Shown: positions 4,264 to 28,538 of the stretch, one piece after another | Numbering within the stretch: the first letter of the stretch is position 1 | Layout: every line of letters begins with the position of its first letter | Assembly (NCBI GenBank): GCA_963756155.1 | Contig: CAVWMQ010000010.1 | Location: forward strand, 95,672-159,671 | DNA: 64,000 bases | Origin: an uncultured delta proteobacterium | GTDB lineage: Bacteria > Desulfobacterota > Binatia > Binatales > Binataceae | Reading direction: 5' to 3' | The notes under the pieces: generated by a model | What the model saw: only the letters and a program-made list of their open reading frames with translations | Database searches by the model: none | What the model was told of the DNA's origin: nothing | Translations under genes and position numbers: made by a program

Positions 4264-6747
4264 ATGGGCGACGGTCTAGGCAACTTTCGTCTCGCAACTC
4301 CACCCGCGATCGCCGCGGCACTCGCTATCGCTGCGGCGCTGACATTCATCGGCGCTCGGCGCTCGCTCGGCCTGGTCTTCGCTTACCTCGCGATCGTCGC
4401 CAGCGCGACGATTCCCGCGTTTCAGCTTCTCAGTCCGCCGCCGAATTCCTCGAGCATCCGCATTTTCCCCGACGGCGCCGAGCTCACCGTCGAGGGGAGG
4501 CTCGTGCGCGAGACCGAGCGGATGCCCGATCTGACCCGGCTCTATGTCGCCGTCACGCGCGCCGGCTACGTAGGTCGCGAGCTGAGCTCTGCCGCCGGCT
4601 TGATCCGTGTCGCCGTACTGGCTCCGGGAGCTGGACCGTACAGACTTGGCGACGACGTCCGTCTCACATCGCGGCTGCGTTTTCCGCGCAACGACGGCAA
4701 TCCCGGCGAATTCGACTACGAGGGTTTCATGGCGCGCGAGGGGATCGCCGCGACGATGACCGTGCGCGCTGCCAAAGGCGGACCCCCCGGCATCGAGGTG
4801 ATCGGCTACCATCCGCGTTTTCCCGCCTCGCATATCGAGGCGATCCGCGATCGCATCGGTGCATTCATCGACGCGAATCTGCCGTGGCCCGAGCGCGCCG
4901 AGATGCGCGCGCTTGTGATTGGCGACCGCGATGGAATCGACGATCGCATCCGCAACGAATACGCGCGCACGGGCATGGCGCATCTGCTCGTGATCTCGGG
5001 GTTGCACTTGAGCTTCGTCGCGGCCGCGGCATTCGCTCTCGTCCGCCTTGTCATGATGCTCGCGCCGGGACTGGCCAGCCGCGGCTACGCCAACAAGGCC
5101 GCCGCGATCGGCGCTGCGCTCGTGGTATGCGCCTACGCCTCGATTGCGGGCCATCACGTATCGACTGTGCGCGCGCTGGTGATGGTGCTCGCGTACATGT
5201 TCGCGGTCGTGATCGATCGCGCGCGCGAGGCGCTGGCGAGCCTGGCGCTCGCGGCAATCGTGATTTGCATCGCAATCCCGGGGTCGACCGCCGACATCGG
5301 TTTCCAGCTCTCGTTCGTTTCGGTGATCGCGATTATACTTGGGATGCAGCGCTTCACGGGCTGGTATCAGCGCCGCGATGCGGCGCTCAGGCTTCCGGGC
5401 GAGACGCGCTCGCGTTCTTCGGCCGCCGCTTTGGGCCTGCTCGGCTACCTCGCGGTTTCATTCTGGGCGCTGACCGGCACTGCGCCGCTCACGGCATTTC
5501 ATTTCAACCAGTTCTCGATCATCGGAATCGTTGCGAACGCGGTGGTAGTGCCGATCATGGGCTTCGCCGCCACGCTCAGCGGACTCATCGCCGCCGCGCT
5601 GAGTTTCATCTGGATGCCAGCGGCGCGCGCGTGCCTGTGGTTCGCGGGCCAATGGCTTAGGCTCGGCAACACGCTCGCGGGTTGGTTCGTTGAATGGCCG
5701 CTGGCGTGGTCGCGCATTTTCACGCCGACGCTGCTCGAGCTGGCCCTCGCATATACGCTGCTGATGATGTGGCTTGCGTCGCCGATCAAGCCTCCGGTCC
5801 CGCCAACGCTCCATCCCGATCGCGATGCGGGCACCGCGCGACGCATCGGCTGGCGCTTTGCGGTCACCGTTGCGATTGTCGCGGCGCTCGGCGTGGACGC
5901 GGGATGGTGGATCCGCGATCGCTACTTCAATCCCGGGCTGCGCGTGACGTTTCTCTCGGTGGGCGAGGGCGACGGCGCAGTGATTCGCTTCCCAGGCTCC
6001 GCAGTGATAGTCGTCGACGCGGGCGGAGCGTATGCCGGTTACGACAGCGGCGAGCGGATCGTCGCGCCATTTCTATGGTCGCGGAAAATCATGCACGTCG
6101 ACTATATCGTGATGAGCCATCCCGACCTCGACCATTTCGGCGGCCTCGGCTTCATCGCGGAGAACTTCGCTCCAAGTGCGTTTTGGAGTACCGGCGCGAC
6201 CAGTTCCGACGTTGCCTTTCCTGAGTTGCTTAAGGCCCTCAAGCGGGAGCGGGTGCCAATGCGGCTGGTCGATTCCGCGGTGCCTCCGATGCGCCTGGGC
6301 GGCGTCGCCATCAAGGTGCTGAGTCCGGCCACTGCGGCTAGTTCCTCTGATCTTAGTGCCAACAACGCCTCGATGGTGCTTCGCTTCGATTTTCCGGGCG
6401 CCTCGTTCCTGTTCACCGGCGACATCGAGACGCCCGCGGAGCGCACTCTCGTCGAGAGGTACGGGGCCAGTCTAGCCGCGACGGTGCTGAAGGTGCCGCA
6501 TCACGGCAGCGCCACCTCGTCGACGGCGGCGTTCATCGAGGCCGTCCATCCGGCGTTCGCGGTCATTTCAGACGGCTACCAGAACCGCTTTCAATTCCCC
6601 TCCCAGGACGTGGTCGATCGCTATCGCCAGAGCGGCGCAACCGTCCTCCGCACCGACCAGGACGGAGCAGTCATCGCGGAAGTTCGAGACGGCGCCCTGT
6701 CGGTGCAAACCGGTCGCGGCATCGCGCCGATACCAGTTTCAAAATGA
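4264..6747 (+). CDS. comEC: DNA internalization-related competence protein ComEC/Rec2
   Basis: 827 aa. It has a central polytopic competence domain and a C-terminal metallo-beta-lactamase domain (IVMSHPDLDHFGG ... VLKVPHHGS). Confidence 0.9.
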   Translation: MGDGLGNFRLATPPAIAAALAIAAALTFIGARRSLGLVFAYLAIVASATIPAFQLLSPPPNSSSIRIFPDGAELTVEGRLVRETERMPDLTRLYVAVTRAGYVGRELSSAAGLIRVAVLAPGAGPYRLGDDVRLTSRLRFPRNDGNPGEFDYEGFMAREGIAATMTVRAAKGGPPGIEVIGYHPRFPASHIEAIRDRIGAFIDANLPWPERAEMRALVIGDRDGIDDRIRNEYARTGMAHLLVISGLHLSFVAAAAFALVRLVMMLAPGLASRGYANKAAAIGAALVVCAYASIAGHHVSTVRALVMVLAYMFAVVIDRAREALASLALAAIVICIAIPGSTADIGFQLSFVSVIAIILGMQRFTGWYQRRDAALRLPGETRSRSSAAALGLLGYLAVSFWALTGTAPLTAFHFNQFSIIGIVANAVVVPIMGFAATLSGLIAAALSFIWMPAARACLWFAGQWLRLGNTLAGWFVEWPLAWSRIFTPTLLELALAYTLLMMWLASPIKPPVPPTLHPDRDAGTARRIGWRFAVTVAIVAALGVDAGWWIRDRYFNPGLRVTFLSVGEGDGAVIRFPGSAVIVVDAGGAYAGYDSGERIVAPFLWSRKIMHVDYIVMSHPDLDHFGGLGFIAENFAPSAFWSTGATSSDVAFPELLKALKRERVPMRLVDSAVPPMRLGGVAIKVLSPATAASSSDLSANNASMVLRFDFPGASFLFTGDIETPAERTLVERYGASLAATVLKVPHHGSATSSTAAFIEAVHPAFAVISDGYQNRFQFPSQDVVDRYRQSGATVLRTDQDGAVIAEVRDGALSVQTGRGIAPIPVSK

Positions 6748-19894: not shown

Positions 19895-20147
19895 GGCAGG
19901 CAGGGGTGACCCCTGCACCCACTACCCGGACCGGCTCCGTTGTCGCCGGGGAAGAATCATGGTGGATGAGCGCCCGGCTCAATACGCCCATCTTGAGTGC
20001 AGGCCGCAGCAGTCCCTTCGGCAGGCATGGGACCAGCCGGTATCTCGATACAAGCCGTCAGCATGGATCACGCACCTTCCTCCGCCGGCGACGAAGGAGC
20101 CGGCTTCTTGTGTAGGTAGTGGGTGCAGGGGTCACCCCCTGCCCGCC
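19895..20147. repeat. MITE-like element / long nested inverted repeat
   Basis: The outer arm 19899-19926 (GGCAGGGGTGACCCCTGCACCCACTACC) is the reverse complement of 20115-20143 apart from one extra G. An inner arm pair at 19931-19949 and 20085-20103 matches 17 of 19 positions. No credible ORF lies inside the element. Confidence 0.5.
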
Positions 20148-20207: not shown

Positions 20208-20293
20208 GCGAGAGTGGCGGAACGGCAGACGCGCAAGGCTCAGGACCTTGTGAGCGCAAGCTCGTGGGGGTTCAAGTCCCCCCTCTCGCACCA
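20208..20293 (+). tRNA. tRNA-Leu (anticodon CAG), class II with long variable arm, CCA encoded
   Basis: Hand-folded cloverleaf: acceptor stem GCGAGAG/CTCTCGC, anticodon stem-loop CAAGG-CTCAGGA-CCTTG, T arm GGGGG-TTCAAGT-CCCCC, and 3' ACCA. It closely resembles E. coli tRNA-Leu(CAG). Confidence 0.95.
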
Positions 20294-20341: not shown

Positions 20342-20755
20342 CTACATCGGAGGTTTGCCGCCGGCGCCGGAGTCCCCGCCGCTGGGCGCTGCACCCGAAT
20401 CGCCGCCAGCAGGAGCTGCACCGCCACTGGGAGCTGCACTGGTGTCTCCGCTGGGCGCGGCGGCGCCAGTATCTCCGCTCGGCGCAGCTCCGGTCTCCGC
20501 GCCGCTCGGCGGCGTGCCTGATTCCATCGAACCGCCTGGGATCACGCCGGTGGCGTGACAACTCGCCACGTCGGCTTCGCTGGCCCCGATCGCCGAGGCT
20601 ATCTCCGAATTCGACCGTCCGGACTGCGCCTGCAGCCGGACCACGTTGCAATCGACATGATTGGTGCTCATCGAGCTGCAGCCGGCCATTCCCCCCGCGA
20701 GCAGCAGCGCCCCAACAGCAGTCCCGGCTGCGAACCTCAGGCAGGATTGAAGCAT
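20342..20755 (-). CDS. small lipoprotein with C-terminal low-complexity (AAPSGD-like) repeats
   Basis: Start taken at MLQSCLRFAAGTAVGALLLAGGMAGC, which has a lipobox. The C-terminal third is an imperfect tandem repeat (GAAPSGDTGAAAPSGDTSAAPSGGAAPAGGDSGAAPSGGDSGAGG). Confidence 0.6.
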   Translation of the reverse strand: MLQSCLRFAAGTAVGALLLAGGMAGCSSMSTNHVDCNVVRLQAQSGRSNSEIASAIGASEADVASCHATGVIPGGSMESGTPPSGAETGAAPSGDTGAAAPSGDTSAAPSGGAAPAGGDSGAAPSGGDSGAGGKPPM

Positions 20756-20896
20756 GAGAGATCCCCTCGCTCGACGAAATTCGGTCCCCACCGTCGAGCC
20801 ATGCGCAAGATATTATCGGCGCCGAAATATTACAAGGCGCGATCGTTTTGTACCGATCCGAAGCGCCATTACAATCAAGAGTACGTTAATTTATTA

Positions 20897-21105
20897 AAAA
20901 GCGCTTCAAAAAAATTCGCCCAGCCGCTGAAAAGCCAACGCCCGGCACAACCCGCGCGCGCATTTCGATCCGGCGCCGCGCTAGCAACCGCATCAGCGAC
21001 CAGAATCCACGCACCGAAACCTCGACGACGTTTCGGCGTCCGGAATGTCGAAGGGAAGCGCGAAACCCATCTGGGTTTCGCCCGGCTGAGATCAAGTCGT
21101 CCCTG
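20897..21105 (+). repeat. about 210-bp dispersed repeat, copy A
   Basis: It aligns by hand to 25519-25729 at roughly 80-85% identity in direct orientation. Both copies keep the hairpins CCGAAAC..GTTTCGG and GCGAAACCCA..TGGGTTTCGC. Confidence 0.8.
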
Positions 21106-21188
21106 ACGGCGCCTTGGGCCGCCATGTAGTCCTTGGCTAACGCCGGTGATAAGACGTGAGGCGGTCGCTCTCTCAGAGGGATCACGCG

Positions 21189-24100
21189 ATGCGCTGCACG
21201 AAGTGCGGCATCGACAATGCCGCAGGTTCGAGATTCTGTAATCAGTGCGCGACGCCGCTCAGCCGGGTGTGTCCAAAGTGCGCTCATCTGAACGCGCCTG
21301 ATGCGAAGTTCTGCGCGGAGTGCGCCGCATCGCTGACTTCGGACGTATCGAAATCCACCGCAAGCACTTCTTCAACGTCAGCGGTGCGGATCGCGCCGGA
21401 GCAGACCGATTCTGAGGTCGCCGACGGCGAGCGCAAGACGGTCACCGCGCTGTTCGCGGACATCAAGGGCTCGACCGAGCTGGAGCAGGACCTCGATCCT
21501 GAAGAGGCGCGCGCGATCGTCGATCCTGCGCTCAAGCTGATGATCGACGCGGTGCACCGCTACGACGGCTACGTGGTGCAGTCCACCGGCGACGGGATTT
21601 TCGCGATGTTCGGCGCGCCGCTCGCGCACGAGGACCATCCGCAGCGCGCCATTCATTCCGCCATGCGGATGCAGGACGAGGTCCGCCGCTACGCCGACCG
21701 CTTGCGCGCCGAAGGGCGTGCGCCGCTGCAGATACCGGGTCGGCGCGAACACCGGCGAAGTAGTGGTGCGATCGATACGCACCGGTGAAGCCGAAGACCG
21801 AGTACACCGCGATTGGGCATCCGGTGAACCTGGCGTCGCGGATGCAGACGCTTGCCAATCCCGGCTCGACCGTGATCGCGGAGAGTACGCGCAAGCTGGT
21901 CGAGGGATATTTCACGCTCAAGTCGCTGGGCGCTTCGCGGGTCAAAGGCGTCAGTGAGCCGGTGAATGTTTACGAAGTCATCGGCCTCGGGCCCTTGCGC
22001 ACGCGCCTTCAGCGGGCGGTAGGGCGCGGGCTGGTGAAGTTTGTCGGCCGCAATCGCGAGATGGACACCCTGAAGCACGCGGCCGAGCAGGCCAGGGCGG
22101 GGCACGGGCAAATCGTCGCCGCGATGGCGGAGCCGGGAGTCGGCAAGACGCGCTTGTTTTACGAGTTCAAGGCGACTTCACAATCCGGCTGGATGGTGCT
22201 GGAGACGTTTTCGGTCTCGCACGGCAAGGCGTCTGCGTTTTTGCCGGTGATCGATCTGCTCCATGGCTACTTCAAGATCACCGGCGATGACGACACGCAC
22301 GCACGGCGCGTCAAGGTCAACGGCACGGTGCTCACGCTCGATCGCGCGCTGGAAGACACACTGCCGTATCTGTTCGGGCTGCTGGGAATAGTGGAAGGCG
22401 ACGACCCGCTTGGCCAAATGGATGCGCAGGTCCGAAAAGCGCGCACGCTGGACGCGATCAAGCGCATCCTGCTGCGCGAGTCGCTCAACCAGCCGCTGAT
22501 GGTCGAGTTCGAGGACCTGCACTGGATCGATGACGAGACGCAGGCGCTGCTCAACCTGCTCGCCGACTCGATCGGCACCGCGAAGATCCTGCTGCTGGTG
22601 AACTATCGGCCCGAATACTCGCATCAGTGGAACAGCAAGACCTACTACACGCAGTTGCGGCTCGACCCGCTCGGCAAAGAATCGGCCGAGGAAATGCTCT
22701 CGTCTCTGATCGGAGACGGCAAGGATCTGATCCCGCTGAAACGTCTCATCATCGAGAAGACCGAGGGCACGCCGCTGTTCATGGAAGAGGCCGTGGACAT
22801 GCTGCTGGAAGAGGGCGCGCTGGTGCGCAACGGCACGGTGAAGCTTGCCCGGTCGCTGAACCAGCTAAAGATTCCGCCAACGGTGCAGGACATCCTGGCC
22901 TCGCGTATCGATCGTCTGGCGCCGGACGCGAAGGATCTGCTGCAGACGCTGGCGGTGATCGGAATGGAATTCCCGTTCGGCCTGGTACAAAGGGTGGTCC
23001 CAAAATCGGAAGACGAGCTGGACCGCTTACTGCATGCTCTGCAGCTCGCCGAGTTCATCTACGAGCAGCCGGCAGCGGGCGAAAGCGAGTACATCTTCAA
23101 GCACGCGCATACGCGGGAAGTCGCGTACAACTCCCTGCTCAACGAGCGCAGAAAGCTCCTTCACGAACGGATTGGTTCTGCGATTGAAGCGTCATTCGCT
23201 CAATCAATCGATGATCATCTGAGCCAGCTTGCTCACCATTACAGTCGCAGCTCGAACGTCGAAAAAACGGTCGAGTACCTGGACCGCGCAGGGCGGCAGG
23301 CGATCATGCGCGGTGCCTTCAAGGAAGGCGAGCTCTATGTGAGGCAGGCGATCGCCGCGCTGCGCACGGCACCCGAAACCCCTGAGCGCACAAACCGGCA
23401 ATTCATTCTCCAGAACGCACTCTGTCAGGCGCTCTTCATGACGAGCGGCTTCACCACGGATGAGACTGTGCAGGCGACCCGGCGCTTGCTGGAGCTGGGC
23501 GAAAAAACTGGCGACCCGGAGCAACTCATCGCCGCGCTGAGGTCCGTTTGGCTCTCGACCTCTTCGCAGGGCGATTGGACCGCCGCCCAGCAGATCGCCG
23601 AACGACTAATAGAGACTGCCCAGCGCTGCGGGAATCGCTACGGTCTGGCCACGGCCCACTACTATCAGGGATGGTTCTTCATGATTCGTGGCGAGCTGAC
23701 TCGGGCAATGCAACATTTCGAGGCGACGATCGCGTCATACCGCGATGCTGACTTCTACGGGGACATCTGGAACTCTCGGGTCGGGGCGCTGGCGCGGATG
23801 GGTGCGGTGTTGTGGCATTTGGGGTTCGCCGATCAGGGTCGCGCGAAAATGCGTGAAGCGATTTCCTCGGCCGAGCGCTTGAAGGCTCACGGAAGTATGG
23901 CGGTCGTGCTCGTGCACGCCAGCCTTCTGTACATAGGTTTACGCGAGCACGCCAAGGTGGATGAATATGCCGCACGTCTGTTCACTCTCGCGAGCGAACA
24001 ACAACTCCCCCAATTTGTTACCGGCGCTGCGGTTGTTCGCGGATGGGCATTGGCCGAGCTGGGTCAGATTGAGGAAGGCCTCGCGCTGATTCGCCCAGGA

Positions 24101-24526
24101 CTCGATTCCAACCCGAGGCTCGTCCTCTGGGGGCCGACGTATTTGACAGCGTTGAGCGGGGTGCAGGCGCGCGCCGGTCAATTGGAAAAGGCACTGGCCA
24201 CGATCGAGCAAGCCTTCGCTACGGTTGGGGAAGAGCAACTCTATTTGCCGGGTGTGTTGTGGTGGCGCGGCGAGTTGCATCTGCGGCTTGCCGATGAAAC
24301 CAAGGCGGCCGGTGATTTCCGGGAAGCGATCGCCGTGGCCCGGCGCATTGGCTCGAAAGCATTCGTGCTGCGCGCGACGACGAGTCTCGCGCGGCTAATC
24401 GTCAGGCAAGGCAATCGCGACGAGGCGCGCGCAATGCTCGCGGACATCTACAATCAATTCACCGAAGGCTTCGACACCGCCGACCTGAAAGACGCCAAGT
24501 CCCTGCTCGCCGAGCTAAGGGAGTAG
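21189..24526 (+). pseudogene. zinc-ribbon / class III adenylate-guanylate cyclase / AAA (STAND-type) ATPase / TPR protein, interrupted by two +1 frameshifts as assembled
   Basis: The N-terminus has a double zinc ribbon (MRCTKCG..FCNQCA..CPKCAH..FCAECA). The cyclase core is split over three frames: ..APLQI (ORF 21156..21788), RVGANTGEVVVRSIRTGE (ORF 21718..21957), and KTEYTAIGHPVNLASRMQ onward (ORF 21785..24526). A Walker A motif (AEPGVGKTRL), a long helical region and TPR repeats follow. Confidence 0.85.
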
Positions 24527-24547
24527 CGGCCCCGCCGGGAGGATCTC

Positions 24548-25393
24548 ATGTACGCGAACATTAACGGACTGAAGATTCACTACCTGATTGAGGGCTCTGG
24601 GATCCCATGCGTGATTCCGAGTCTGGCGAGGACTCGGATTTACGAACGGACGTTTTCCGCGAACTTGAGACGGCATCTTAAGCTCGTGTTCGTGGAACTT
24701 CGCTCGAATCGGTCGGACGTGGGTGACATCGGGTCAACGACTCTCGATTCGATCGTCGACGATATCGAGCGGCTGCGGGCCGAACTCAAGCTTGAGCGTA
24801 TCGCAATACTTGGGCATTCGGGACACGGGTTTCTCCCACTGCGCTTCGCGACCCGGTATCCGGAGCGGATTTCGCATGCAGTCCTGGTCGGCGCGGCTCC
24901 CGAATTTCACACGGCGCGGCTTACTGCCGAATGGGAGAAGTACTGGGAGATAGTCGCGTCGAAGGAGCGCAAAGACTTGCTCGCGCGCAACCTGGTGCGC
25001 GTGAAACCGGTGTTGAGCCGCGCTACCGCTGACGAGGCGATCGCTCTTAACTACGCGGCCAACGGTCCGTTGTTCTTTTACGACGCTCATTTCGATTGTA
25101 CGGGCCTGTGGGAGGGTCACGCGAATAACGCCGAACTGTATCGGCGGTTCTGGGGCCCGGGCGGAGAATTTTCGCGGTTCGATCTGGCGGTGGAATTTCC
25201 GAAGGTAAAATGTCCAGTGCTGATTGCGTCGGGCGTTTTTGATTTCGGCACGATTCCCACCGCGTGGCACGGGGTCAAGGACAAGCTCGCCAATCACGAG
25301 TACCGCGTATTCGAGAAGAGTGGACACTATCCACAAATGGAAGAGCAACGCCTGTTCGATGAAACCCTGGTCGAATGGCTGAAGCGCAATTGA
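24548..25393 (+). CDS. alpha/beta hydrolase (proline iminopeptidase-like)
   Basis: It has the nucleophile elbow ILGHSGHG and a C-terminal GHYPQMEE region containing the His. GC content is visibly lower than in the flanking core genes. Confidence 0.85.
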   Translation: MYANINGLKIHYLIEGSGIPCVIPSLARTRIYERTFSANLRRHLKLVFVELRSNRSDVGDIGSTTLDSIVDDIERLRAELKLERIAILGHSGHGFLPLRFATRYPERISHAVLVGAAPEFHTARLTAEWEKYWEIVASKERKDLLARNLVRVKPVLSRATADEAIALNYAANGPLFFYDAHFDCTGLWEGHANNAELYRRFWGPGGEFSRFDLAVEFPKVKCPVLIASGVFDFGTIPTAWHGVKDKLANHEYRVFEKSGHYPQMEEQRLFDETLVEWLKRN

Positions 25394-25518
25394 ACTTCTA
25401 CAATGAACTCTTCGCGCGGAAGTGCCGATTTCGTTGAACTGCCTCAACAAGAAAGAGGCTCGGCCAATTGAGTTTGAGCTGACTCAAGTTCAGCAGCGAA
25501 GCAGCGAAGGAGTATTGC

Positions 25519-25729
25519 AAAAGCGCTTCAAAAAAATCGCGCCAAGCCGCTGAAAAGCAGCCGTCCGGCACAACCCGCGCGCATTTCGATCCGGCGCCGC
25601 GGTAGCAACTCCACCAACGTCCACGATCGACGCACCGAAACCTCAACGAGGTTTCGGCGTCCGCGAATAGTCGAAAGGGAAGCGCGAAACCCAGTTTGGG
25701 TTTCGCTTGACTGAGATCAATGTGCCTTG
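25519..25729 (+). repeat. about 210-bp dispersed repeat, copy B
   Basis: Direct-orientation copy of 20897-21105. It ends about 100 nt upstream of the valS start. Confidence 0.8.
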
Positions 25730-25827
25730 TCCATCATCCCCCCGACGCCTAATCCGCGCTTGAGACGCGCGCCACACGTCAATATGATTTTGAGTTCGGG
25801 CGCGCCGCGCCCTTTCTATTTGACTTG

Positions 25828-28538
25828 ATGCCGGAGCCCCGTTTGGAACTCGCCAAAACATACGACCCCAAAGCCGCGGAACAACGATGGTTCCAGCTCT
25901 GGATCGATCTCGGCTACTTCAAAGCCGATCCCGCGCGCCAGGGCGCCCGCCGCGACGCGCACGGCAATGACTACTTCTCGATCGTCATTCCGCCGCCCAA
26001 CGTCACCGGACAGCTTCATCTCGGCCACGCGCTCAATCACACCCTGCAGGACATCATCGTGCGCACGCGCCGGATGCAGGGCTTCAACACCCTGTGGCTG
26101 CCCGGGAATGGATCACGCCGGCATCGCGACCCAGAACGTGGTCGAAAAGCAGATCGCCAAGGACGGCAAAAACCGCCATCAGCTCGGCCGCGATCTGTTC
26201 GTGCGCCGGGTATGGGAATGGAAAGAAACCTACGGCGGCAAAATCCTCGAGCAGGATCGCCGCCTCGGCGCGTCACTGGACTGGAGCCGCGAGCGCTTCA
26301 CCCTCGATGCCGGCCTCTCGCGCGCGGTGAGCAAGGTCTTCGTCGACCTGTACCGCAAGGGACTCATCTATCGCGACCGCCGGCTGATCAACTGGTGCCC
26401 GCGATGCGAGACGGCGCTCTCCGATCTGGAAGTCGAGCACAAGGACGCGCAGGGGCATCTCTATTACATCCGCTATCCCTTCAGCGACGGCAGCGGCACG
26501 ATAACCCTGGCGACCACGCGGCCCGAGACGATGCTGGGTGATACGGCGGTGGCCGTTCATCCTGACGACAAGCGCTACGCCGCGATCGTGGGCAAGAAGA
26601 TCCGGCTCCCGCTGATCGGCCGCGAAATTCCGATCATCGCGGATGCCGCCGTCGATCCCAACTTCGGCACCGGCGCGGTGAAGATCACGCCCGCGCACGA
26701 CTTCAACGACTTCGAAATCGGCCGGCGCCATCAGCTCGAACAGATCAGCGTGATGGACACGCGCGCGCACATGAACGAGAACGCCGGGCCGTACCGCGGG
26801 CTCGATCGCGAGGAATGCCGCCGCAGAATCATCGACGATTTGAAGAGCGCCGGGCTGCTCGAAAAAATCGAACCGCATCAGCTCGCGGTCGGCACCTGCT
26901 CGCGATGCGACACGGTGGTCGAGCCGATGATCTCCGAGCAATGGTTCATGCGCGTCAAGGAGATGGCGGAGCGCGCGATGCAGGCGGTGCGCGACGGCCG
27001 CACCAACTTCCATCCCAAGTTCTGGGAGAACACGTTTTTCAACTGGCTGGAAAATATCCACGACTGGTGCATCTCGCGCCAGCTATGGTGGGGGCATCGC
27101 ATTCCGGCCTATCGATGCCAGCGATGCGAGCATCTGATGGTCGCCGAAGAGCGCCCGCCGAAATGCGAGGAGTGCGGCGGCACCGACCTGGTTCAGGACG
27201 AAGACGTGCTCGACACCTGGTTCAGCTCCGGGCTGTGGCCGTTCTCGACGCTCGGATGGCCCGACGACACGCCGGAGCTGCGCCGCTACTACCCGACCAG
27301 CCTGCTGGTAACCGCGCACGACATAATTTTTTTCTGGGTTGCGCGGATGATGATGCTCGGGCTCGAGTTCATGAACGACGTGCCGTTCCGCGACGTTCTG
27401 ATCACTGCGCTGGTGCGCGACGAGTACGGCAAGAAGATGACCAAGTCGAAGGGCAACGTGGTCGACCCTATCGATTTGATGGAGCAGTACGGCACCGACG
27501 CGTGCCGCCTCACCTTCGCGCAGTTATCGGCCCAAGGCCGTGAAGTGATTCTCTCGCACGATCGTTTCGCGGCCTCGCGCGCGTTCGCAAATAAAATCTG
27601 GAACGCCGCGCGCTTCGTGATGATGAATCTCGAAGGCGCGCCCGAACCGCTGGCGCCGGTCGCGACCGCGAAGCTCGGGCATGGCCGAGCGATGGATCCT
27701 GAGCCGGCTCGACGCGGCGATCGAGGAAGTGAGCGGCGCTATCGATCGCTTCGAGTTCAACGTGGCGGCGATGGCGATTTACCAGTTTATCTGGCACGAA
27801 TTCTGTGACTGGTATATCGAACTGTCCAAGGAGCCGCTGAAGGCCGGCGGCGAGCGCCGCGACGCGGCGCGCTACGTGCTGGTCACCGTCTTCGACCGGA
27901 TGTTGCGCCTGCTGCATCCGTTCATGCCGTTCATCTCCGAGGAAATCTGGCAGGTGCTTCACCCGTACCTGAGCGAAGCGGACGGATCCGCGCTGAGTCC
28001 GCACTTGGTGATTGCGAAATGGCCCGAGCGCGCGCCCGCCAATCCGCTCAGCCAGGCGGAAGCGGCCGCGATGGGGCACTGTATCGAGGTGACAGAGGCG
28101 ATCAACTCGCTGCGCTCGCTGCTCGGATGGCATCCCGGCCAACGCGCCCGCGCCAAGATCAAATTCCTCGATTCGGTCGAAAGCACCGAGCTGGAAAGCT
28201 GGCGATTTTATTGCGACACGCTGGCCAAAAGCGAAATCGAACCGCTCACCAGTGAGTTCGATGATCATAAGTGGGTTGCGCTGGACCTGGGATGGGGCAA
28301 AGTGTGGGTGCAAGCCCCGGAAAATTTCGACGTGACCAAAACCCGCAACTCGTTCGCCAAAAAGCTCGCCGAGGTCCAGGCTCATCTCACGCGTCACGAG
28401 GCCCGAATCAAGGATGCGGGTTTTTTTGAGCGGGCCAGCCAGGAAGCGAAGGACGAAACGTTGAAGCGAATCGAGGATCTCAAGTCTGAGGAAAAGACCC
28501 TGAAGGGACAATTGCAGCAACTGGAAAGCGTCGGTTGA
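25828..28538 (+). pseudogene. valS: valine--tRNA ligase, interrupted by two +1 frameshifts as assembled (probably intact in vivo)
   Basis: Three consecutive ORFs (25825..26541, 25967..27808, 27681..28538) join into one ValRS: HIGH region PPPNVTGQLHLGHAL, ..TLWLPG|MDHAGIATQ.. (break near 26101-26108), KMSKS region KMTKSKGN, ..AKLG|(M)AERWILSRL.. (break near 27676-27681), and a C-terminal coiled coil. Confidence 0.9.

Follow-up and report, generated by a model that had tools for sequence, protein, structure and literature searches.

We analysed a stretch of 64,000 nucleotides from an uncultured delta proteobacterium of the Binataceae (GenBank assembly GCA_963756155.1, contig CAVWMQ010000010.1, positions 95,672 to 159,671), referred to here as the window, in which two direct hairpin repeats, copy A (20897-21105, plus strand) and copy B (25519-25729, plus strand), bracket a nucleotidyl cyclase-STAND gene and an alpha/beta hydrolase gene upstream of valS. 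The two repeats are probably the duplicated ends, made by recombination, of an accessory insertion of about 4.9 kb in one Binataceae lineage, while the exact recombination route, which we infer, is held with less confidence than this overall reading. Judged by its sequence, the 3′ ~85 nt core of the repeat is a member of an abundant, mosaic repeat family of Candidatus Binataceae that resembles repetitive extragenic palindromic (REP) sequences, bacterial interspersed mosaic elements (BIMEs), and REP doublets forming hairpins (REPINs).

The case for an insertion is built on synteny. A scan of metagenomes for ValRS gave six syntenic Binataceae loci (L123-L128, 76–80% amino-acid identity), which share with the window the upstream genes, tRNA-Leu(CAG), a small minus-strand lipoprotein gene, the promoter block of that gene and that of valS, and valS-nadC-birA. 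All six lack the cassette genes (cyclase-STAND and hydrolase) as well as the two repeats, and the divergent lipoprotein and valS promoter blocks stand 16–46 non-conserved nt apart there versus 4910 nt in the window. In the window, 53 nt separate the lipoprotein block from copy A, which is followed by the cyclase-STAND gene with its leader and then by the hydrolase gene; a further 125 nt lead to copy B, and 24 nt remain before the valS block. Because the repeats lie within 53 and 24 nt of native promoter blocks, they are at the extreme ends of the lineage-specific DNA, which from synteny with L123-L128 and from GC content we place at 20846-25753 (plus strand), with ends known to ~30 nt. The original prediction that the repeats bracket inserted DNA is therefore borne out, as six of six syntenic relatives have neither cassette nor repeats.

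Both flanks can be recognized as native. On the left, outside the insert, lies the lipoprotein gene (20342-20755, minus strand; lipobox LAGGMAGC), which has 74% identity to the syntenic open reading frame (ORF) of L124, and its promoter-like block (20800-20843, minus strand; CATGCGCAAGATATTAT...TTACAAG) is the last native sequence before the insert, conserved in L123-L128 with the pattern CATGCGCA.GATATTA...TTACAAG. On the right, the first native sequence after the insert (25754-25827, plus strand), also conserved in relatives, holds a valS promoter-like site, TTGAGA-17-TATGAT (25760-25788), and then a GC hairpin with a T run (25798-25820). In L123-L128, this block is kept as GCTTGAGA-17-CAATATGAT, and a GC hairpin with a T run usually comes after it. 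The hairpin and T run (GGGCGCGCCGCGCCC-TTTCTATTT) between the promoter-like site and the start codon are found in the window, L124, L126, and L127, and might serve valS of Binataceae as a terminator or attenuator in the leader; the region upstream of valS showed no T-box.

The inserted block had been described as visibly less GC-rich than the flanking tRNA-synthetase genes and as starting 600 bp from tRNA-Leu, and each description holds in part. The insert has 60.5% GC versus 64.3% for the window, but the drop is modest, given that valS itself is at 60–63% (the hydrolase gene is at 57%). The tRNA-Leu(CAG) gene is indeed nearby (20208-20293), but the native lipoprotein gene intervenes. The locus resembles tRNA-linked islands in having an accessory, lower-GC block near a tRNA gene with direct repeats flanking it; it differs in that a native gene and promoter precede the insert, the repeats bear no relation to the 3′ end of the tRNA, no integrase is present, and the repeats are 205 bp long and diverged. 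Pfam searches found no integrase or transposase in the insert, and no tRNA-derived repeat was found, the 26-mer at the tRNA 3′ end occurring once with up to three mismatches permitted. We therefore rejected tRNA-linked integration, given the intervening lipoprotein gene and promoter, the lack of a tRNA-derived repeat, and the lack of an integrase.

The repeats themselves are clearly homologous. Copies A and B align in direct orientation at 86.3% identity over 204 columns (MAFFT, blastn), with 21 mismatches, 6 gap openings, and an E value of 9.7e-63 (blastn), and their global alignment score is 142, compared with -18 ± 6 for shuffled sequences. This is slightly above the 80–85% identity that had been estimated by eye for these same-orientation segments and far above the shuffles. 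Homology ends abruptly on either side (blastn). As had been proposed, the repeat is non-coding; copies A and B have no ORF in common in our comparison of window ORFs. The spacing to the plus-strand genes downstream, predicted at ~85–100 nt, was measured at 84 nt from the end of copy A to the cyclase ATG (21189) and 99 nt from the end of copy B to the valS ATG (25828). All four repeat junctions were reproduced in independent assemblies, namely JGI contig L117 and Logan short-read contigs from four soil metagenomes, and the arrangement of repeats and cassette is thus not an assembly artefact. Small indels between the repeat copies should be read with caution, as the window has indel errors.

Each repeat unit of ~205 bp consists of a 5′ part of ~120 nt and a 3′ double-hairpin core of ~85 nt in which a first hairpin (H1), a spacer, and a second hairpin (H2) follow one another. 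H1 has the consensus CYGAAACCTC/GAGGTTTCRG with arms CCGAAACCTC/GAGGTTTCGG. In copy B, it forms a 10-bp stem (25635-25644/25648-25657), while in copy A (21014-21024/21026-21036; arms CCGAAACCTCG/CGACGTTTCGG, found by hairpin search and compared with L117) two substitutions relative to copy B and L117 weaken the stem. H2 has the arms GCGAAACCCA/TGGGTTTCGC, with 10-bp stems that are identical in the two copies and loops that differ, TC in copy A (21060-21069/21072-21081) versus GTT in copy B (25684-25693/25697-25706). The copy A version, GCGAAACCCA-TC-TGGGTTTCGC with GGGAAGC just before it, supplied the family motif for our genome scan. These features confirm the two preserved hairpins of the original prediction, including the extension of H1 to 10 bp in copy B and the identical H2 stems with loops tc versus gtt. 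In copy B, H1 (25635-25657) and H2 (25684-25706) are palindromes related to each other and arranged as an inverted pair, with 81% complementarity over 21 nt and a spacer of 28 nt, so that the core at 25635-25706 is a REPIN-like doublet. The window copies do not form the middle helix, CTTCC/GGAAG, seen in the family consensus.

Beyond the window, the core belongs to a dispersed population. In a scan of one genome per species (GTDB), the exact H2 hairpin was found at at least 116 loci, mostly in metagenome-assembled genomes (MAGs) of Candidatus Binataceae or Binatus, some of them labelled "uncultured delta proteobacterium". Copy number was at least 18 loci in MAG CAVVEB01, at least 21 in JBGPNU01, and at least 8 in CAWDLC01; two multi-megabase contigs from other species had one or two H2 matches each among the matches listed. 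Nearly all Binataceae copies have GGAAGC directly 5′ of H2. We aligned copies A and B with 17 family copies that have the same H1-spacer-H2 layout over ~85 nt, and a covariance model gave 133 matches in Binataceae loci. Elsewhere, H1 or H2 is coupled to at least three other recurrent modules (TTCTAACAGG-hairpin-GCATC; GGGTGCAGGGGTCACCCCTGCCC; and a CGACTGCGAGGCG... block), and the family is therefore mosaic, as BIMEs are. According to a crude home-made gene caller, 57 of 65 family copies lie outside called ORFs, in either orientation, and of the 18 copies with a gene no more than 60 nt from H2, 15 come directly after a convergent gene's stop codon.

REP/BIME elements and REPINs are known from Enterobacteria and Pseudomonas (Bertels & Rainey 2011, PMC3116915; PMC3337134). 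The Binataceae repeats are like them in being short, GC-rich extragenic palindromes in tens of copies per genome, often just after stop codons and with copy number strongly unequal between related genomes; in forming inverted doublets of related palindromes with a short spacer and mosaics with other modules; and in maintaining stems while loops vary. Specifically, the stems are 10 bp with loops of 2–3 nt, extragenic copies are many in Binataceae MAGs, and both the inverted doublet and the mosaic arrangement are present. They differ in that no REP-associated tyrosine transposase (RAYT) was found for them in ~1.7 Mb of loci, in having no sequence similarity to described REPs, in their host, the uncultured phylum Binatota, and in that the window copies have a 120-nt extension of their own and flank genes as a direct pair, an arrangement not described for REPINs. 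The repeat had been suggested to be REP- or MITE-like (MITE, miniature inverted-repeat transposable element); the dispersed hairpin core supports that suggestion, but the repeat is not itself a MITE, as neither terminal inverted repeats nor a target-site duplication were seen.

A different element with a similar design was seen in an alphaproteobacterium. In the Xanthobacteraceae MAG SPRUCE 697 (loci L005, L022, L023, L025, L038, L046, L047, L085, L087, and L092, with more at L100, L102, L103, L107, and L116), and also at L057, the H2 stem with a TCGA loop occurs in another high-copy element of ~110 nt, which has terminal inverted repeats TAGGATGGGT...ACCCATCCTA and a second hairpin, GGCGAAATCGG..CCGATTTCGCC. 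It forms a separate, MITE-like family with a similar two-hairpin "CGAAA" design.

While the core is dispersed, the 5′ ~120 nt (AAAAGCGCTTCAAAAAAAT...CGCGCGCATTTCGATCCGGCGCCGCG) was seen only in copies A and B and in copy A of L117. We did not find it in the 116 genome loci, the metagenome valS loci, the loci of cyclase and hydrolase homologues, or Logan contigs from the same population. Two motifs of the 5′ part and the H2 motif gave nothing in viral contigs, or bare 17-mer chance matches that did not extend, and plasmid and phage collections had no match to the repeat. We read the 5′ part, from this distribution, as a locus-specific extension of the dispersed core. This bears on the idea that copies A and B are independent insertions of one repeat variant beside a cassette of unrelated arrival, so that the bracketing is a coincidence arising from the preference of REP-like repeats for intergenic spacers. 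Family members do fill many intergenic spacers in either orientation, and their number per genome can be high, but the two window copies have in common an extension that, L117 copy A aside, is seen nowhere else, they point the same way, each is within a few tens of nt of an insert end, and motif search, repeat search, and the covariance model run without filters found only these two copies in the 64-kb window. We regard such a coincidence as distinctly unlikely.

The conserved hairpins also raise the question of a role in RNA, and the original prediction included a small RNA (sRNA) or 5′-leader family among its options. A 205-nt structured cis-regulatory RNA or sRNA gene serving both cyclase-STAND and valS would agree with the position of both copies 84–99 nt before a plus-strand start codon in the same orientation, and with folding z-scores of -1.7 and -2.4. 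Stems are also kept while loops vary, with some compensatory changes: in H2, C-G>U-A in nine copies and A-U>G-C in two (among copies not chosen by exact pattern), and in H1, U-A>C-G in four. Stem cells are paired in 97% of cases across 20 copies. Apart from these changes, the family copies are too similar for covariation, a likeness that fits recent spread rather than an ancient RNA. Our covariance model gives 58 bits at 21008-21091 (copy A) and 79.5 bits at 25629-25716 (copy B), but because the core is dyad-symmetric, it scores the reverse strand almost equally (copy B 52 bits, copy A 32 bits), and the structure names no transcribed strand.

Several further results count against an RNA of this kind. 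Rfam has no match for the repeat even at E<=10; only the tRNA passes the gathering threshold in the window, and relaxed scans of copies A and B give sub-threshold chance matches. Family copies have no fixed orientation to genes, and of the 18 with a called gene within 60 nt, 15 follow a convergent stop codon. A scan for sigma-70 promoters and terminators found no promoter in or around copy A, a valS promoter-like site 3′ of copy B, and a terminator-like H2 on the minus strand of copy B only. The conserved valS promoter is located between copy B and valS, and the relatives, which lack the repeat, regulate valS all the same. Cyclase paralogues retain their own leader without the repeat, and the 5′ 120 nt differs by 16% between strains that are 97% identical overall. 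The sRNA or leader option therefore fares poorly, and we consider it very unlikely. We likewise rejected a T-box or aminoacyl-tRNA-synthetase-leader function for copy B, because this valS promoter and hairpin are also found in relatives that lack the repeat. By analogy with REP elements, H1 and H2 probably act at the level of DNA or of transcript 3′ ends, as a barrier or terminator and as a recombination substrate, and probably not as a regulatory RNA devoted to the cyclase gene or to valS.

Between strains, divergence falls mainly in copy A. L117 comes from a strain 97% identical overall to the window, yet its copy A has 84% identity to that of the window within the repeat versus 95–98% in the immediate flanks. 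At 20 alignment columns, the copy A of L117 has the state of window copy B, among them columns of the spacer, of the H2 loop, and of the H1 stem, which is intact. Copy B is ~99% conserved in short-read contigs of related strains from the same population. The copy-B-like patch in copy A is, from this pattern, best explained by gene conversion between the repeat copies.

A second structure, of ~253 nt, lies upstream of tRNA-Leu at 19895-20147, with inverted arms of ~60 nt (19895-19954 versus 20080-20147) that include a perfect 24-nt pair. It is made of another Binataceae repeat module (GGGTGCAGGGGTCACCCC); its right half is other sequence in L117, and some short-read contigs skip 135 nt. From its make-up we classify it as a strain-polymorphic REPIN/MITE-like element. 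Being polymorphic between strains 97% identical, it indicates that such repeats are variable on the time-scale of strains.

We propose that the insertion interrupted the short spacer that separated the divergent promoters of the lipoprotein gene and valS. As the likeliest route, a Campbell-type crossover would have joined a repeat resident in that spacer with a repeat on a circular or transferred segment carrying repeat, cyclase, and hydrolase, duplicating the shared sequence; movement of a repeat-flanked unit would be an equivalent alternative. The copies would afterwards have diverged and been partly re-homogenised by gene conversion. In Campbell-type integration, recombination between dispersed repeats, and IS26-style translocatable units (IS, insertion sequence), the insert is flanked by direct copies and needs no integrase of its own, and the flanking copies can later homogenise or recombine out. 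The window insert is similarly placed between two direct copies and has no integrase; it differs in that the shared sequence is a non-coding hairpin repeat rather than an IS or gene, the copies are 14% diverged, and no donor circle or solo copy was seen.

Some points weigh against this proposal. Neither a resident solo copy nor a donor locus has been observed, and the Campbell-type step is only inferred. The nearest cassette-free relatives are distant (valS 76–80% amino-acid identity), which limits how well the junctions and the order of events can be resolved. As the 5′ 120 nt is in no other copy, the repeat unit is not simply a dispersed element. Our copy count for the source genome covers only the 64-kb window, the gene-context counts come from the home-made gene caller, and assembly error in the window may add to the divergence of its copy A from that of L117. 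Lastly, an RNA role for the repeat is possible.

The repeat-flanked unit might instead be a mobilisable element, such as an excisable cassette or a transposon of composite, MITE-like, or REPIN-flanked type, on which a RAYT-type Y1 transposase or a recombinase would act in trans. The direct repeats at the extreme ends of the inserted DNA, the REPIN-like architecture of the core, and the hairpin-repeat structure at 19895-20147, which is 700 nt away and polymorphic between 97%-identical strains, all suit this explanation. MITE-flanked composites, for example the MITE-bracketed integrons of Acinetobacter, are units in which MITEs with terminal inverted repeats flank the cargo and target-site duplications flank the unit. 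The window locus is like them in that two direct copies of a small, non-autonomous repeat bracket cargo without a transposase, but neither terminal inverted repeats nor target-site duplications were seen at the window unit. The 205-nt unit has no terminal inverted repeats, its ends not being linked by an inverted repeat, and a direct reading of the outer junctions showed no duplication. No homologue of E. coli RayT was found in ~1.7 Mb of loci (tblastn, nothing below E 0.4), although RAYTs are divergent. We also found no second genomic context for the unit, homologues of the cyclase and the hydrolase occur elsewhere without the repeat, and copies A and B are only 86% identical. The original prediction of an excisable cassette was not supported either: no excised or solo junction skipping the cassette was found in eight soil metagenome runs, where the depth was only ~4x and power low. 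On balance, we think a mobilisable element unlikely. A more speculative version, to which we give little credence, is that REPIN-like repeats are the working ends of an undescribed gene-moving route in Binatota, in which cargo between two direct copies would be excised and re-inserted as a unit, either through recombination targeted to the repeats or through an enzyme, RAYT-like or other, that acts in trans. If this were true, abundant REP-like repeats would serve as landing pads and handles for accessory cassettes.

The cargo of the insertion that we prefer to see as made by recombination consists of two genes. The first (21189-24526, plus strand) has the Pfam domain order double zinc ribbon, class III nucleotidyl cyclase, AAA_16 (STAND), and MalT-like tetratricopeptide repeats (TPRs), and is intact at 1111 aa in L117. 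In the window, it is split into two frames, with extra single bases near 21736 and 21793 relative to L117 and short-read contigs, and valS is split into three, broken at 26107 (an extra base relative to L117) and near 27680. These breaks are most likely indels of long-read assembly and not pseudogenes, because an essential gene is affected and the sequence is a long contig of a soil MAG. The second gene, an alpha/beta hydrolase (24548-25393, plus strand), starts 21 nt after the STAND gene and has JGI homologues named "proline iminopeptidase". An exact-protein look-up found neither the window hydrolase nor the STAND fragment on record. In several lineages, the hydrolase gene comes after the STAND gene or STAND remnants, which suggests a functional pair, probably in signalling or metabolism.

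Cyclase-STAND proteins are numerous. All of the at least 8000 scored candidates had E<1e-30, and the best 120 homologues, the window's own fragment excepted, are 57–74% identical. Paralogues occur up to three per contig, followed by differing metabolic or transport genes. Class III cyclase-ATPase-TPR multidomain proteins are exemplified by the mycobacterial Rv0386 type. The window protein resembles this type and Pycsar in joining a Guanylate_cyc domain, homologous to PycC, with an AAA_16 STAND NTPase and MalT-like TPRs; it differs in its N-terminal double zinc ribbon, in lacking a LuxR HTH and a Pycsar effector, and in its massive paralogous expansion in soil bacteria.

These comparisons address the prediction that the cassette is an antiviral STAND/cyclase defence module on a small islet. 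The combination of a cyclase effector-like domain with a STAND NTPase and TPRs does recall the logic of Avs-type systems, the DNA is accessory and of lower GC, and the cyclase domain matches the PycC models of PADLOC (best E 1.3e-13). Those matches are limited to the generic class III cyclase domain, however; PADLOC had no match on the STAND-TPR part and none beyond E 3e-3 on the hydrolase. ORFs and Pfam revealed no gene for a Pycsar effector activated by cyclic nucleotides in the insert, and so many homologues, several per contig beside varied metabolic and transport genes, are typical of signal-transduction expansions. A defence function would also leave the repeats unexplained. The defence prediction thus does not hold up well, and we consider it highly improbable.

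Other observations concern the cargo genes and their relatives. The upstream leader of the cyclase-STAND gene (21112-21188, plus strand) is common to paralogues on other contigs (L202 ~650-729; L203 ~5920-6000), where the repeat does not precede it; over ~80–95 nt it reads ..GGCGCCTT..TAGTCCTTSGC..CYGGTGATARGA..GAGGCGGTCG.. and is matched by many Logan contigs in differing contexts. This region may be a family-specific promoter or 5′ untranslated region element. Three short, conserved stretches of the cyclase-STAND gene (21420-21740, 22440-22650, and 24320-24690) have Logan depths hundreds to thousands of times that of the remainder in soil metagenomes, because paralogues are very many in soil communities. 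In L120 and L121 (JGI Ga0599169_0000035 and Ga0599193_0000637), a 78%-identical hydrolase adjoins a phage-type integrase and an ArdC-like gene, with RNase H-like, SNF2 helicase, and MmeI-type methyltransferase genes downstream and a stray 64-nt copy of the STAND-gene 3′ end 3.5 kb before the hydrolase. In other places, then, homologues of the hydrolase are also carried along with mobile or defence DNA of the classical kind.

The hairpin repeat family of Binataceae is apparently undescribed; the top-ranked titles and abstract openings from the Binatota, Binatia, and Binatus literature held no description of such repeats, in searches for which the repeats themselves were not a target. Our findings add a REP/BIME/REPIN-like family for an uncultured, globally distributed soil phylum, and provide a clean natural example of such repeats at the ends of a gene insertion without an integrase, with signs of ongoing gene conversion. 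For annotators, they serve as a warning that these hairpins are not riboswitches or att sites, and that the frame breaks in the window are assembly noise. Should the repeats prove to be a cause of the insertion, dispersed hairpins of this kind would go some way towards accounting for the shuffling of accessory genes into conserved housekeeping regions with no need for classical mobile-element machinery.

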